Below, piece after piece: positions 9,050 through 17,442 of a stretch of 20,485 nt of DNA (position 1 is the stretch's first letter; each line of letters starts with the position of its first letter). The stretch lies in the UHGV virus genome UHGV-0139389; one strand, given 5' to 3'. A model generated the notes under the pieces. It worked only from the letters and a program-made list of their open reading frames with translations, was not told the origin of the DNA and did no database searches. The position numbers were made by a program, and so were the translations under genes. This DNA comes from a virus.

Positions 9050-9444
9050 TAACGAATAACCTGTGTGACTTGAATTGCTTCAGTTACGGACAAATCACCA
9101 ACTTTCTCTTCTTTGATGAAAGTAAAGGTTAGTTCAACAGGTTCTTGCTCTTCTTGCTCAACTGGAATACCGTTAAGCTCATCAAAGATTGATTGGGTAG
9201 TCCAGTCTTCTCCACCATCTGGATAGTGGATGGCATAAAGAGGAAACTCTAAATTATACCAAGCAAAAACAGGACAACCGTCTGCATCATCTCGGCATCT
9301 GTGGAGGTACGTATTTGTACCTTCAAAATGCAAATGAAGATTGCCATTCTTCTCAAATAGAAGAGCATCTCGCAGGTCTAGTTCCTTATTTTCGCTGTAA
9401 CGACTGACATCAACTTTAACGTGGATATGACTGTTATTATTCAT
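9049..9444 (-). CDS. hypothetical protein, 131 aa (start trimmed from TTG 9468)
   Basis: ATG at 9444 preceded by GAGAGAGG with 5-nt spacer. Confidence 0.6.
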   Translation of the reverse strand: MNNNSHIHVKVDVSRYSENKELDLRDALLFEKNGNLHLHFEGTNTYLHRCRDDADGCPVFAWYNLEFPLYAIHYPDGGEDWTTQSIFDELNGIPVEQEEQEPVELTFTFIKEEKVGDLSVTEAIQVTQVIR

Positions 9445-9886: not shown

Positions 9887-10351
9887 TTACTTTGGGTATA
9901 CACTGTCAAGATAAATGTCAGCTTCCATTCTACGTCTGTTTTTCAGACCGTTTGAAGTGACCTTCTTACCTTTGACTGTAACCTTGTTCCACCACTGCAT
10001 AGCTTCTGCACAACCTACCTTATTACCAGCATTGTGGCGCTTGATAAATGTGGAATCCTGCATAGCTGTGATACCGATGTTGTATGTTTCACTTACAAGT
10101 GCATCGAACTCATTCTGAGTAGTTGGAACCTTGATAGCTTTGTTCACTGCTGCAACAAACTTCTCAACATCCGCGAGAAGATACTGTTCAGCTTGTTCAG
10201 CAGTAATTTTCATACCCATCTTAACAGGTTTTCCGTCAATACGGATTGTCCCATACCCGATTGTTGGGATTCCGGCAGAATCTTCGTAAGCCTCTAACTC
10301 CAGACCTTCGAAGAACTTAATAGCATCTAAACCTTTTCTTGAGAGTTGCAT
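9887..10351 (-). CDS. endolysin, glycoside hydrolase family 24 (T4 lysozyme-like)
   Basis: Motif FEGLELEAYEDSAGIPTIGYG (catalytic Glu, TIGYG) as recalled for T4/P22-type lysozymes; 154 aa. Confidence 0.85.
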   Translation of the reverse strand: MQLSRKGLDAIKFFEGLELEAYEDSAGIPTIGYGTIRIDGKPVKMGMKITAEQAEQYLLADVEKFVAAVNKAIKVPTTQNEFDALVSETYNIGITAMQDSTFIKRHNAGNKVGCAEAMQWWNKVTVKGKKVTSNGLKNRRRMEADIYLDSVYPK

Positions 10352-13481: not shown

Positions 13482-13562
13482 TTTTAAAAGATGTTGACAG
13501 ACTCTATAAAGTTGCTCTAAAGTCTGTCACATCAAACAACAAATGAGAGAAGAGAGTAAAAT

Positions 13563-14978
13563 ATGAGCGAATTATTTAAACATGCGCACCTTCATGCAGG
13601 TCGAACTGAAAATGGTGCTGTAAACCATACTTCATCAATGTCTGCTCTTGTAGACTTTTACAAAGCTGCTGGTTCAAGCCGTAGCAATGTAGAAATCTTA
13701 CCAGACTTGTTCTACAAAGCTTTGCGTGAGGATGTTGATGTTGCAGTTCGTATTTTGCTTCATATGCGAGATGTACGAGAAGGTATGGGTGAGCGTAAAG
13801 CCTTCAGAACTGTTTTGCTTCAAGCAATTGAAGATAAAGTTTTAGAGCCTACACAGGTTCTTCGCATTATGGATAAGATTGCAGAACTTGGTCGTTTTGA
13901 TGACTTCAAAATCTTCGTGGGTACTTGTTTCGAGACAGATGCCTTCAAACATTTAGAAGCAGCATTACTAGACCCTGCAACAGCAGGTTTGGCGGCTAAG
14001 TGGTTACCACGAGTCAAACCACGTCATAAGCAGTTTGTAAAACGTTTCTGCAAGTTTGCCAACTTGAGCGAGAAAGAGTACCGCACACTGTTATCTGCAC
14101 TATCTGATACAGTTGAGCAAAAAATCTCTGCTAATGAGTTTGGCAAGATTGACTACAGTAAGGTTCCCTCACTTGCTGCTGCACGTTACCAAAAACTGTT
14201 TAACCGTAAGGATGGAGAACGTTACAAAGCTTACATTGAGTCCTTATCAAAAGGTGAGGCTAAGATTAATGCTGGTGCTGTTTACCCATACGATGTGATT
14301 AAATCTGTCAAGCATGGTAATGCAGATGTTGCTAATGAGCAGTGGAAAGCACTACCAAACTGGATGGCAGAAGGTGAAAACATCTTGTGTATGTCTGATG
14401 TATCAAGTTCAATGTCTTGGGTGAATTTTGGCTCCATTACTGCTCTGGATATTGGTGTATCACTTGCCTTGTATGTAGCAGAACGCAATACAGGTTGCTT
14501 TAAGAATGAGTTGATGGTTTATTCAACAAACCCTCACTTCATCGAACTGAGTGGTGATTTACGAAACCGTCATCGTCAGGTGATGCGACACGTTGAATAT
14601 GGCTCAACTAACTTACAAGCAGCTTTTGACCGCATTCTTGAGACAGGCAAAAGAAACAACTTGACTCAGAAAGATATGCCAAGTAAGCTTATCATCTTCT
14701 CCGATATGGAGTTTAATCAGGTTGATGGGGCTAACGGTCGTACAAACTTTGAAGCAATTCAGAGTAAGTACAAAAAAGCTGGATATGAGATGCCACAACT
14801 GGTATTCTGGTACTTAGCAAACCGTAATGGTACTTGCGAAGTATCTGTTAAGGATAACGGTGTAGCAATGGTATCAGGGTTCTCTCCAGCCACTTTAAAA
14901 GCTCTGCTTGGTGGTGAGAAGTTTGACCCAATCAGTGTAATGCTCAAAGCAGTAATGATTGACCGTTATATCTGGTAA
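13563..14978 (+). CDS. vWA-domain protein with helical N-terminal domain; candidate Ro60/TROVE-like (Rsr-like) RNA-binding protein
   Basis: MIDAS motif ILCMSDVSSSMS (DxSxS) and later FSDME strand = vWA fold; N-terminal ~280 aa helical with GMGERKAFR; resemblance to Ro60 (DVSxSM, FSDEM, MxSGF) is from memory, not a search. Confidence 0.75.
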   Translation: MSELFKHAHLHAGRTENGAVNHTSSMSALVDFYKAAGSSRSNVEILPDLFYKALREDVDVAVRILLHMRDVREGMGERKAFRTVLLQAIEDKVLEPTQVLRIMDKIAELGRFDDFKIFVGTCFETDAFKHLEAALLDPATAGLAAKWLPRVKPRHKQFVKRFCKFANLSEKEYRTLLSALSDTVEQKISANEFGKIDYSKVPSLAAARYQKLFNRKDGERYKAYIESLSKGEAKINAGAVYPYDVIKSVKHGNADVANEQWKALPNWMAEGENILCMSDVSSSMSWVNFGSITALDIGVSLALYVAERNTGCFKNELMVYSTNPHFIELSGDLRNRHRQVMRHVEYGSTNLQAAFDRILETGKRNNLTQKDMPSKLIIFSDMEFNQVDGANGRTNFEAIQSKYKKAGYEMPQLVFWYLANRNGTCEVSVKDNGVAMVSGFSPATLKALLGGEKFDPISVMLKAVMIDRYIW

Positions 14979-14996: not shown

Positions 14997-15025
14997 TTGA
15001 CAATGTGTTTGATACCCTTTAATAT
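14997..15025 (+). promoter_or_regulatory. sigma70-like promoter TTGACA-17 nt-TAATAT upstream of tRNA array
   Basis: Counted spacing; second weaker TTGACA at 15088. Confidence 0.45.
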
Positions 15026-15143
15026 GTTCTACATAGAAACGAAATGAGAGCTTTTCTAAGATACTGAAAAATATTTTAAAAAAGTTCTTGACAACCACTA
15101 AAAAATAATGTTAAAGTGGTTACATAGAGTTTGAAAAGTTTAT

Positions 15144-15312: not shown

Positions 15313-15385
15313 CAGAAGACCAATTACAGCAAACTTAATCTACTCATCTGAAAGTTAATCGGACAAAGAAGATATTTGGTCTGGT
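15313..15385 (+). ncRNA. Stem-closed spacer RNA element U1 (conserved 5' CAGAAGACC..TACAGCAA, 3' GGTCTGG)
   Basis: 5' AGACCAA pairs 3' TTGGTCT; member of 4-copy family with compensatory changes. Confidence 0.4.
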
Positions 15386-15478: not shown

Positions 15479-15545
15479 CAGAAGACCGTTTACAGCAATA
15501 TTTATTAAATTTTTAGCGGAAAAATTGAAAGATACGGTCTGGTAA
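15479..15545 (+). ncRNA. Stem-closed spacer RNA element U2
   Basis: 5' AGACCGT pairs 3' ACGGTCT; conserved TACAGCAA after stem. Confidence 0.4.
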
Positions 15546-15795: not shown

Positions 15796-15873
15796 GGTTA
15801 TGTAGTTTAATCTGGTTAAAATACTCCCCTGTCACGGGAGATGATGAGGGTTCAAATCCCTTCATAACCGCCA
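15796..15873 (+). tRNA. tRNA-Asp (anticodon GTC)
   Basis: Acceptor GGTTATG/CATAACC, stem CTCCC/GGGAG, loop CTGTCAC, CCA. Confidence 0.85.
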
Positions 15874-15934
15874 ATTTTGAGAGGGCTATTTAGCCCCTCC
15901 CTTAAAGAGTTCTTACGAGTATTCTTTAAAGGAG

Positions 15935-16010
15935 CAGAAGACCAAATACAGCAAGAATGTATGAAATTTCAAGCCAATTCAATTTTGAAAATTTAAAACT
16001 TGGTCTGGCT
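15935..16010 (+). ncRNA. Stem-closed spacer RNA element U3
   Basis: 5' AGACCAA pairs 3' TTGGTCT; conserved 5' CAGAAGACCAAATACAGCAA. Confidence 0.4.
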
Positions 16011-16022
16011 CAACAAATTTAC

Positions 16023-16153
16023 AGAAGACCGTTTACAGCAAAACTTAAACAATCTATTTCTCCGGTAAAGAAAAGGCGAGGGTTCGATTCCTTCACTCGG
16101 CAGATGTCGAGTTGGTGTAATGGTAGCACTTAAGATGATAAACAACGGTCTGG
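16023..16153 (+). ncRNA. Candidate Y-RNA-like (YrlA-like) RNA: terminal stem enclosing tRNA-like module without anticodon arm
   Basis: 8-bp stem AGACCGTT(16026-16033)/AACGGTCT(16144-16151); inside: T-arm GAGGG-TTCGATT-CCTTC (16078-16094), capped acceptor-like hairpin ACTCGGC-AGAT-GTCGAGT (16095-16112), D-arm-like GTG-TAATGGTAG-CAC. Confidence 0.45.
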
Positions 16154-16160
16154 TAATTAC

Positions 16161-16292
16161 CTTTGTAGATAAGTTATTAAGCTTACTTGTGAGTATGCGA
16201 CCACAAAGGGTGAATGGGTAAATTCTAGATTTAAACCCAAAAAGGCACATCGCTACAGACCTTAAGCAAGTCTGGGTAGCTTATCTACAAAG
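16161..16292 (+). ncRNA. Structured element closed by perfect 13-bp long-range stem
   Basis: CTTTGTAGATAAG (16161-16173) is exact reverse complement of CTTATCTACAAAG (16280-16292); internal hairpin CAGAC-CTTAAGCAA-GTCTG. Confidence 0.4.
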
Positions 16293-16302
16293 ATAATTTA
16301 AT

Positions 16303-16378
16303 GGAAGTGTAGCAGAATGGTGATGCGGCAGACTTTTAATCTGACAGGCGATGGGTTCGAATCCCTCCACTTCTACCA
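16303..16378 (+). tRNA. tRNA-Lys (anticodon TTT)
   Basis: Acceptor GGAAGTG/CACTTCT (G1-U72), loop CTTTTAA, T-loop TTCGAAT with weak T-stem, CCA. Confidence 0.7.
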
Positions 16379-16382
16379 ATAT

Positions 16383-16459
16383 GGTTCAGTCGCAGATAAG
16401 GTAATGCAAGGGTCTCATAAGCCCTATGAATGTGGGTTCGATTCCCATCTGAACCTCCA
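16383..16459 (+). tRNA. tRNA with anticodon CAT (Met or Ile-lysidine), second copy
   Basis: Acceptor GGTTCAG/CTGAACC, stem AGGGT/GCCCT, loop CTCATAA, T-loop TTCGATT, CCA. Confidence 0.8.
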
Positions 16460-16551: not shown

Positions 16552-16580
16552 TTGACATTGAGATGTGACTACTTTATAGT
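16552..16580 (+). promoter_or_regulatory. Internal sigma70-like promoter TTGACA-17 nt-TATAGT
   Basis: Counted spacing 17 nt; best consensus match in window; precedes ~200-nt unassigned spacer and tRNA-Arg. Confidence 0.5.
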
Positions 16581-16782
16581 AACCTTAGTTTTCGTTGCGT
16601 AGCGTCTATTTTGCAAATTTAAAATAAATGCAAACGACAATGTTTTTCTGGCAGTAGCTTGATAGGCTAAACACCAGTGAGGTCTTCCAATCCCTCATCA
16701 AAGAATTTGGCGTACTCGCCCACGGTATGATTAATAAGGTGGGCATCTTTAAGGGCTTTCTAAGAGAGTCTTTAAAGATAAT

Positions 16783-16859: not shown

Positions 16860-17001
16860 AATAGTTAGCAGATTGCTTAGACGACCTTATCGGGTCTCCG
16901 TGTAAGGAGGTGGTCTGTATCTCATGTTTTCCAGAACATGTAAATAATCTGAGAAGGGGCTTTACAGTGTTGAGATAATACGGTAAGCTTCGAATTATAG
17001 T

Positions 17002-17084
17002 ATGGGACGATGTTAAGACTCTAAGGCATGAGCAACGGCTTCCAACACCGTTTCAAAGGGGTTCAACTCCTCCGTCCCATGCCA
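17002..17084 (+). tRNA. tRNA-like, probable anticodon CCA (Trp), non-canonical D region (80 nt)
   Basis: Exact 7-bp acceptor ATGGGAC/GTCCCAT, T-loop TTCAACT, loop TTCCAAC, CCA encoded; ~7 extra nt between acceptor and anticodon stem. Confidence 0.45.
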
Positions 17085-17097
17085 AAGTCTTATTAGG

Positions 17098-17185
17098 GGT
17101 AGGTAGCGGCTAATGGTAGCCAAACTGTCTTGAAAACAGTTGCCACTGTAGAGATACGGTGAGGGTTCGACTCCTTTACTTACCG
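17098..17185 (+). tRNA. tRNA-Ser (anticodon TGA), long variable arm
   Basis: Acceptor GGTAGGT/ACTTACC, stem ACTGT/ACAGT, loop CTTGAAA, 20-nt variable arm, T-loop TTCGACT; no encoded CCA. Confidence 0.75.
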
Positions 17186-17342
17186 CCTAATAAGATTTAA
17201 AGCCAAGCTTCATTCGGATGTTGCTTTGGTATACCGCGTGTATTGTTGTACACACTGATAAAACACCTAGTAGGTGTCACGGAGAAGAGATAATATCAAG
17301 CTCTCCAAAGGTTCTAGTCACCGGATTAAACAAGACTATGCA

Positions 17343-17363
17343 AAGACCTTTTTAGGTCTTTTT
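17343..17363 (+). terminator. Weak hairpin + short T-tract
   Basis: AAGACC-TTTTTA-GGTCTT then TTT. Confidence 0.3.
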
Positions 17364-17442
17364 AGAGGGCTTCTAAGGTTATTACAGCTTGTTGTGGAAC
17401 CTTGTTGCTTAGGTTCTTAGAAGTTCTCTAAAAAGATTTAAT

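Follow-up and report, generated by a model that had tools for sequence, protein, structure and literature searches.

The inverted repeat at positions 16161-16173 and 16280-16292 of the window (the whole 20,485-nucleotide stretch of viral DNA analysed here) is the closing helix, P1, of a discrete, conserved and previously undescribed non-coding RNA of about 135-145 nt, which we call the E RNA. This RNA is structured, encoded on the plus strand, present in a single copy and linked to a tRNA-Lys gene, in a cluster headed by a gene with the Ro60 fold. The most conserved part of the element, missed in an earlier note on this DNA, is the loop CUUAAGCAA of an internal hairpin (H3), and not the sequence of the helix. 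Regarding function, P1 is quite possibly, if not quite probably, the terminal helix of a stable RNA that would be cut from a tRNA precursor and would act as a Y-RNA-like ligand or scaffold of the Ro60-like protein, for which the E RNA is a good candidate partner.

The exact reverse complementarity of CTTTGTAGATAAG (16161-16173) and CTTATCTACAAAG (16280-16292) was confirmed from the sequence, as was the location of the repeat between a repeated element named U4 (ending at about 16154) and tRNA-Lys(UUU) (16303-16378). The claim that such a match is very unlikely by chance was overstated for the perfect 13-mer alone, since about 10% of Markov-1 random sequences of 20.5 kb contain perfect 13-bp inverted arms no more than 200 nt apart (mean 0.15 per sequence), a chance that falls to 1% for the 5.5-kb tRNA array alone. 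A repeat search extends the arms to 16155-16176 and 16277-16298 (22 nt, 91%), and the folding check proposed in the note shows that the repeat forms a long terminal helix in RNA, with 24 pairs between 16155-16178 and 16275-16298, G-U pairs and one C.A mismatch included (RNAfold, RNAalifold). The segment 16155-16298 folds at -43.8 kcal/mol, versus -26.4 +/- 3.5 kcal/mol in dinucleotide shuffles (z = -5.0; none of 200 shuffles as good). Chance is ruled out because the helix covaries across lineages: the note would have counted a lack of conservation of the stem in related phages as a refutation, and the stem is conserved there, with compensatory changes. P1 encloses an interior of about 96 nt with three hairpins (H1, H2 and H3), and the parts of the element are the following:

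16155-16178, plus strand: 5' strand of the terminal helix P1, including the 13-mer 16161-16173; pairs with 16275-16298.
16189-16204, plus strand: hairpin H1, GUG-AGUAUGCGAC-CAC, provisional, from sequence comparison and without support from the alifold predictions.
16216-16238, plus strand: hairpin H2, GGGUAAAUU-CUA-GAUUUAAACCC, from fold and comparison.
16256-16274, plus strand: hairpin H3, CAGAC-CUUAAGCAA-GUCUG, from fold and comparison.
16275-16298, plus strand: 3' strand of P1, including the 13-mer 16280-16292, from RNAfold, RNAalifold and covariation.

The internal CAGAC/GTCTG hairpin described earlier is thus real (it is H3, at 16256-16274) and conserved, with a nearly invariant loop and a covarying stem; since no nucleotide separates H3 from the 3' strand of P1, the two helices can stack.

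The window comes from a Felixounavirus (a Felix O1-like myovirus), and its region 15880-16400 is 97-99% identical in about 190 Escherichia, Salmonella and Shigella phages (e.g. wV8 and typing phage 1), the element being nearly invariant within Felixounavirus. A second type is found in Mooglevirus (Mordin, Sf13), fBSPA4 and others, with P1 CUUUGCAGUGAC.../...GUUACUGCAAAG and H3 CAAACC-CUUUAGCAA-GGUUUG, and with an interior that is largely different yet retains AUUCUAGAUU. Further types occur in metagenomic relatives, which were located via the neighbouring protein (63-53% identity; L042/L126, L043, L127, L128, L129, L130 and L131, of which L129 is Yersinia phage vB_YenM_P778), with unrelated P1 sequences of 15-30 bp. 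Between lineages the helix sequence is wholly changed and the pairing retained. The loop of H3 varies little (in L126-L131 and L043 it reads CUUAAGCAA, CUUUAGCAA, CCUUAGCAA, CUUUAGUAA or CCUAUGCAA, and in L130 CUUGCACA), the apical AUUCUAGAUU of H2 is conserved (ACUAGU in L042), and the stem of the provisional H1 covaries (GGGG/CCCC in L042, CAU/AUG in Mooglevirus) under a loop that retains GAGU..GC. The interior sequence is otherwise poorly conserved between lineages; the three-hairpin layout, of about 100 nt, is retained in all of them.

Covariation was counted in an alignment of 14 sequences from four lineages, in the P1 and H3 stem columns alone, because neither the interior nor the H3 loop is aligned correctly when all lineages are aligned with MAFFT. 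In these columns 96.4% of the cells are paired, versus at most 47.5% with slid partners, and 12 of the 29 pairs show changes on both sides (matched by none of 500 shuffles); P1 itself has compensatory double changes at 10 of its 24 pairs across lineages. At least four P1 positions carry G-U pairs, so the pairing works only for an RNA of the plus strand, on which a covariance model of the element (R1) scores 148.6 bits, versus 45.3 bits on the minus strand. R1 finds exactly one copy per genome. With default filters it misses L127, L129, L130 and L131; switching the filters off recovers L130 and L131, and a motif search together with folding located the variants of L127 and L129.

These data bear on two readings that would dispense with an RNA of this kind. 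The perfect 13-bp arms, and the HNH homing-endonuclease ORFs that invade the arrays of relatives, would suit a feature acting at the DNA level, such as a cruciform, a recombination or endonuclease site, or a miniature inverted-repeat mobile element. We consider this very improbable: the G-T pairs of P1 become A-C on the opposite strand, the arms are wholly different among lineages with their pairing retained, the R1 score of the plus strand is far above that of the minus strand, and there is one copy per genome with no evident target-site duplication. Neither does the element look like a miniature inverted repeat or a DNA palindrome, being single-copy, with arms of unconserved sequence and strand-specific G-U pairs. 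The second reading is coding on the minus strand, where an 85-aa ORF (15993-16250; gp48 of wV8, a hypothetical protein) is present in the window and matches phrog_14433. To this we give next to no credence, since the ORF has no Pfam match, its frame is split in phage Bas63 (bas63_0137 and bas63_0138), it is absent in Mooglevirus, fBSPA4, L042, L128 and L129, and it lies opposite U4, an element in which the permuted tRNA-like helices covary. Being split or absent in related phages, this ORF, antisense to U4 and the element, is probably a spurious gene call that has spread through databases. Felix O1-like phages are widely used in typing and therapy, and in their genomes the region of the element currently carries either no annotation or spurious antisense ORFs.

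The element lies within an array of 26 tRNA genes, all on the plus strand, from 15144 onward (ARAGORN), where the inverted repeat lies in a 429-nt spacer between tRNA-Asp (15796-15873) and tRNA-Lys(UUU). The features that surround it are as follows (the coordinates of U1-U4 are approximate):

13563-14978, plus strand: Ro60-like ORF of 471 aa (TROVE and vWA; DUF2828 and DUF7788), the last ORF before the array, from domain matches and predicted fold.
14997-15025, plus strand: promoter-like site, consensus match only.
15088-15117, plus strand: promoter-like site TTGACA-18-TAAAGT, TG extended, consensus match only.
15313-15385, plus strand: repeated element U1.
15479-15543, plus strand: repeated element U2.
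15935-16009, plus strand: repeated element U3.
16022-16154, plus strand: repeated element U4, a Class-I-like/Y-like RNA, which stops 1 nt before P1.
16303-16378, plus strand: tRNA-Lys(UUU), which begins 4 nt past P1 (ARAGORN).
16552-16580, plus strand: near-consensus promoter TTGACA-17-TATAGT past tRNA-Ile, consensus match only.

Judging from the consensus matches, the transcript carrying the element likely starts at the promoter-like sites at 14997 and 15088; 16552 is where the next such site lies. Consensus matching revealed no plus-strand terminator-like site between these and the element, which would therefore most simply lie within a precursor of the order Pro-Glu-U1-Met-U2-Asn-Tyr-Asp-U3-U4-E-Lys-Met-Ile. 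A literature search found neither a transcriptome paper nor transcript-end data for Felixounavirus.

In all nine lineages examined, a tRNA-Lys gene lies directly 3' of the element, with 0-30 nt (mostly 0-11) between the end of P1 and position +1 of the tRNA, while the upstream neighbour varies: in Felix-like phages it is U4, or U3 following tRNA-Asp, and in the others tRNA-Ala. Anticodon nucleases classically attack tRNA-Lys(UUU). An association kept so closely despite differing upstream neighbours is what one would expect of a structured leader for tRNA-Lys(UUU) maturation, or of a decoy or inhibitor of host anticodon nucleases (PrrC/RloC type). We nevertheless hold such a role to be quite unlikely, given that the element has no evident mimic of the tRNA-Lys anticodon stem-loop and is matched by no tRNA model, and that the linkage may be mere inherited gene order.

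RNase III processing stems flank 16S and 23S rRNA, and phages T7 and lambda carry RNase III sites. The predicted P1 resembles these stems in being a long-range helix of at least 20 bp, formed by sequences flanking an RNA inside a polycistronic precursor; it differs in enclosing an RNA of only about 100 nt. With 24 pairs and one mismatch in the window, and 23-30 pairs in most lineages (in L043 it is interrupted by internal loops), P1 reaches the length required by RNase III (about 20 bp, or two turns), and cleavage of P1 by this enzyme is plausible on the predicted structure. P1 could then be purely a processing signal, i.e., a site at which RNase III or another double-strand-specific enzyme would divide the upstream small RNAs from tRNA-Lys-Met-Ile, with a functionless interior. 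This explanation accounts for a P1 of at least two helical turns in most lineages, for an interior whose sequence is poorly conserved among them, and for the presence in the same array of other helices of at least 20 bp (at tRNA-Ser and at 17352-17441); if it were correct, the helix would document how the precursor of a 26-tRNA phage gets cut into units. As a complete account of the element we regard it as unlikely: a simple hairpin would suffice for RNase III, and all lineages keep a three-hairpin interior of about 100 nt, in which the H3 loop is nearly invariant over a covarying stem and H1 and H2 keep the loop motifs GAGU..GC and CUAG. A processing role is compatible with the excision step of the Ro60-ligand proposal and competes only with its ligand step.

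The protein on which the proposed function depends is encoded by ORF 13563-14978, 1.2 kb upstream of the element and on the same strand. This ORF matches PHROG 850 ("RNA-binding protein"), and the AlphaFold2 model of its product (pLDDT 85, pTM 0.86) aligns from end to end with Ro60/TROVE structures, which make up all ten top Foldseek hits to the PDB (E of about 1e-8, TMq up to 0.65), including 2i91, 1yvp and the Ro60 of Thermus phage phiLo (9l5y/9kop). A PDB sequence search with the protein gave no match, and fold comparison alone succeeded. The vWA MIDAS motif DVSGSM is present in the alignment. By tblastn the family extends to 692 phage records, including mycobacteriophage proteins annotated as "Ro-like RNA binding protein". 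The order of Ro-like gene and array is kept in L042-L044 and L126-L131. An R1 search of 75 more distant Ro-like phage loci (L051-L125) gave no match, and therefore the co-occurrence of the element with the Ro-like gene is not separable from shared ancestry. In phage Bas63 the ORF is bas63_0130 (gp130), which a 2024 preprint describes as resembling Ro60 and as countering the ppl defence. According to the same preprint, growth on the ppl defence is restored when gp130 is supplied by itself, from a plasmid or from T7. This activity, at least, does without a phage RNA partner, which speaks against an obligatory RNP; the authors also speculate that some of the array genes are really Y RNAs. The E and U elements are concrete candidates for the Y RNAs suspected in the Bas63 array.

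Bacterial Y RNAs of the YrlA type are defined by a Ro-binding motif GNCGAA(N)G/CGAA in a stem or bulge, and by a tRNA-like domain (Chen et al. 2014, PMC4201824; phiLo Yrl1/2, PMC12135203). The E RNA is like them in its size (about 80-140 nt), in its ends, which pair into a long stem (the 24-bp P1) around a large, variable, multi-hairpin interior (about 96 nt), and in its position, less than 4 kb from a Ro60-fold gene, on the same strand and amid tRNA-like RNAs. It differs in lacking the GNCGAA/CGAA motif (CGAA is absent from 16155-16298 on inspection), a bulged helix and a tRNA-like domain with T and D arms; neither ARAGORN nor Rfam (E up to 10) gives a tRNA or tRNA-like match over 16155-16298. 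Such a domain is found in U4, which holds a circularly permuted tRNA-like structure (anticodon-like arm, T arm GAGGGUUCGAUUCCUUC, loop-closed acceptor stem and D arm) resembling the tRNA mimic of the YrlA type, with a closed acceptor stem that covaries in Mordin, Sf13, L043 and L044. The phage protein also belongs to a divergent branch of the family (DUF2828), for which the E RNA is only a candidate ligand.

A second comparison is offered by the Class I RNAs of Dictyostelium, which start with AAG and a short stem, carry an 11-nt motif CCUUACAGCAA after the 5' strand of this stem and end with CUGU; they are reported to be unique to dictyostelids and to bind an RRM protein (Kjellin et al. 2021, PMC7919456). 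The U elements all begin with (A)AG and the 5' strand of a short, covarying terminal stem, which (C/U)UUACAGCAA directly follows; next comes an interior that varies, and the second stem strand with CUG(U/G) ends the element. They thus carry every defining feature of Class I RNAs, yet their matches to Rfam RF01414 (consensus GaUcuC-CUUACAGCAAU...GagAuC-UG) stay below the threshold of 41.5 bits, at 20.1 bits for U2 and 17.8 for U1. A strict pattern of this kind, AG-stem-UACAGCAA...stem-CUG, has at least one match in 40 of 75 diverse Ro-like loci from IMG/VR (for instance L052 3776-3871, L053 3133-3233, L056 149-281, L072 4207-4313, L109 4251-4467 and L120 4351-4441). All 56 matches lie on the same strand as the Ro-like gene, with none on the opposite strand, and they cluster within 700 nt of it. 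Among 6-mers, AAGCAA shows the strongest enrichment within these pattern RNAs (17 observed versus 2.2 expected), and the same hexamer is contained in the H3 loop CUUAAGCAA, immediately past the 5' strand of its helix. A trimmed hairpin covariance model built from the distant U/Class-I-like RNAs (R2) did not recover its positive controls U1-U4, because their interiors are long.

H3 resembles the Class I RNAs in that CUUAAGCAA, a 9-mer closely similar to the U/Class I motif (Y)UUACAGCAA, comes right after a helix strand; the likeness is confined to this 9-mer and is at most suggestive of a relationship. The differences are that H3 is an internal 19-nt hairpin and no free RNA, that its motif deviates by two positions or by a 1-nt deletion, and that the AG/CU base of the stem is lost in Mooglevirus, so that CAGAC/GUCUG-G resembles AG...CUG in Felixounavirus only. 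A search of H3 (16256-16274) with RF01414, at E up to 10, gave no match. In L044, a 143-kb phage contig with 51% protein identity, a different 98-nt RNA is found, whose terminal stem measures 16 bp and one of whose hairpins has the loop CCUAAGCAAGAU.

Helix-adjacent (A/C)AGCAA is a signature of small RNAs near phage DUF2828 genes, which makes a Y-RNA-like ligand or scaffold the most likely role of the E RNA. In the mechanism that we propose, the E RNA would be transcribed on the plus strand within the polycistronic tRNA precursor. Its 3' end would be produced by the RNase P cut at +1 of tRNA-Lys, and its 5' end by RNase III acting within P1 or, alternatively, by a single-strand cut in the linker of 1 nt that follows U4, a release resembling the excision of rRNA from its flanking stems. 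The long P1 helix would protect both ends of the RNA, P1 and the stacked H3 would form a conserved docking platform displaying the loop CUUAAGCAA to the Ro60-like protein, and the interior of H1 and H2, a variable module as in Y RNAs, would serve as effector or decoy. A broader version is conceivable, in which E and the four U elements would all be RNA partners of the DUF2828 Ro60 branch via a helix-(Y)UUA(C)AGCAA unit, as in Class I RNAs. The Class I RNAs would then represent an ancient Ro60-like/small-RNA system of phages and DUF2828-bearing eukaryotes, rather than a dictyostelid invention, and E would be a composite, with a minimal Class I module (H3) set in a long-stem scaffold tied to tRNA-Lys; this extended scheme we think doubtful.

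Binding of the element by the protein, if it occurs, would give the large DUF2828 branch of Ro60 proteins (present in plants as well as in about 690 phage records) its first RNA ligands, together with a motif for their recognition, and could connect these proteins to the Class I RNAs of social amoebae. As for its classification, a search of the element against Rfam 15 (gathering score, and E up to 10) gave no credible family, the single overlap being a chance-level match to CssrB (13.9 bits, E = 4.6). A retron msr/msd was rejected as there is no reverse transcriptase, a hammerhead or other ribozyme as there is no Rfam match, and a tRNA with an intron as there is no tRNA signal. Phage T4 encodes, in its tRNA cluster, the small stable RNAs species 1 and 2 (rnaC and rnaD), of unassigned function, which are co-transcribed and co-processed with the tRNAs; the element would be like these in being a small stable RNA encoded amid phage tRNA genes. 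The E element is best filed as a new variant among the Ro60-associated or tRNA-cluster small RNAs.

Several other features of the array and of its relatives were observed. A 13-bp inverted repeat (17085-17097 and 17186-17198) lengthens the acceptor stem of tRNA-Ser(UGA) (17098-17187) to a 20-bp helix (z = -4.6), which Yersinia phage vB_YenM_P778 (L129 8505-8621) retains by means of compensatory changes and which, going by its predicted pairing, may serve as a second site of double-strand processing. A hairpin with 26-nt arms (17352-17377 and 17416-17441, 85% complementary) directly precedes tRNA-Leu(UAG); it has a counterpart in L042 (9904-9992) and, because of its long helix, gives a weak minus-strand match to the E model (24 bits). 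The plus-strand segment at about 17000-17086 is tRNA-like: it has an anticodon-like loop with CCA, GGGGUUCAACUCCUC as its T arm, and CCA at its 3' end (GUAUGGGACG...CGUCCCAUGCCA). It is not called by ARAGORN, is annotated as "tRNA-OTHER" (pseudo) in wV8, and may represent either a tRNA-Trp of unusual form or a further tRNA mimic. At 16552-16782 (plus strand) the promoter is followed by about 200 nt without an ORF up to tRNA-Arg, a region that is highly conserved in L042, has weak Rfam matches to tmRNA and permuted tmRNA (E of about 1e-3, below threshold) and may encode a further structured RNA that has escaped annotation. ORFs resembling HNH-type homing endonucleases (CxxC...HHLxP...CxxCH) lie between tRNA genes in L042 (about 9080-9424) and L044 (about 9968-10318), and L044 has a TnpB/Cas12f-like gene just past its array.

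In the Felixounavirus leader of the Ro60-like gene (13494-13562) no mini Class-I-like hairpin was seen. Several distant phages do carry such hairpins, of 33-41 nt, 10-15 nt before the start codon of this gene, a placement that suggests a binding site for autoregulation in the leader of the gene itself:

L052 4454-4487: mini Class-I-like hairpin.
L055 4452-4487: mini Class-I-like hairpin.
L056 1764-1796: mini Class-I-like hairpin.
L062 2859-2891: mini Class-I-like hairpin.
L073 4450-4486: mini Class-I-like hairpin.
L076 4403-4438: mini Class-I-like hairpin.
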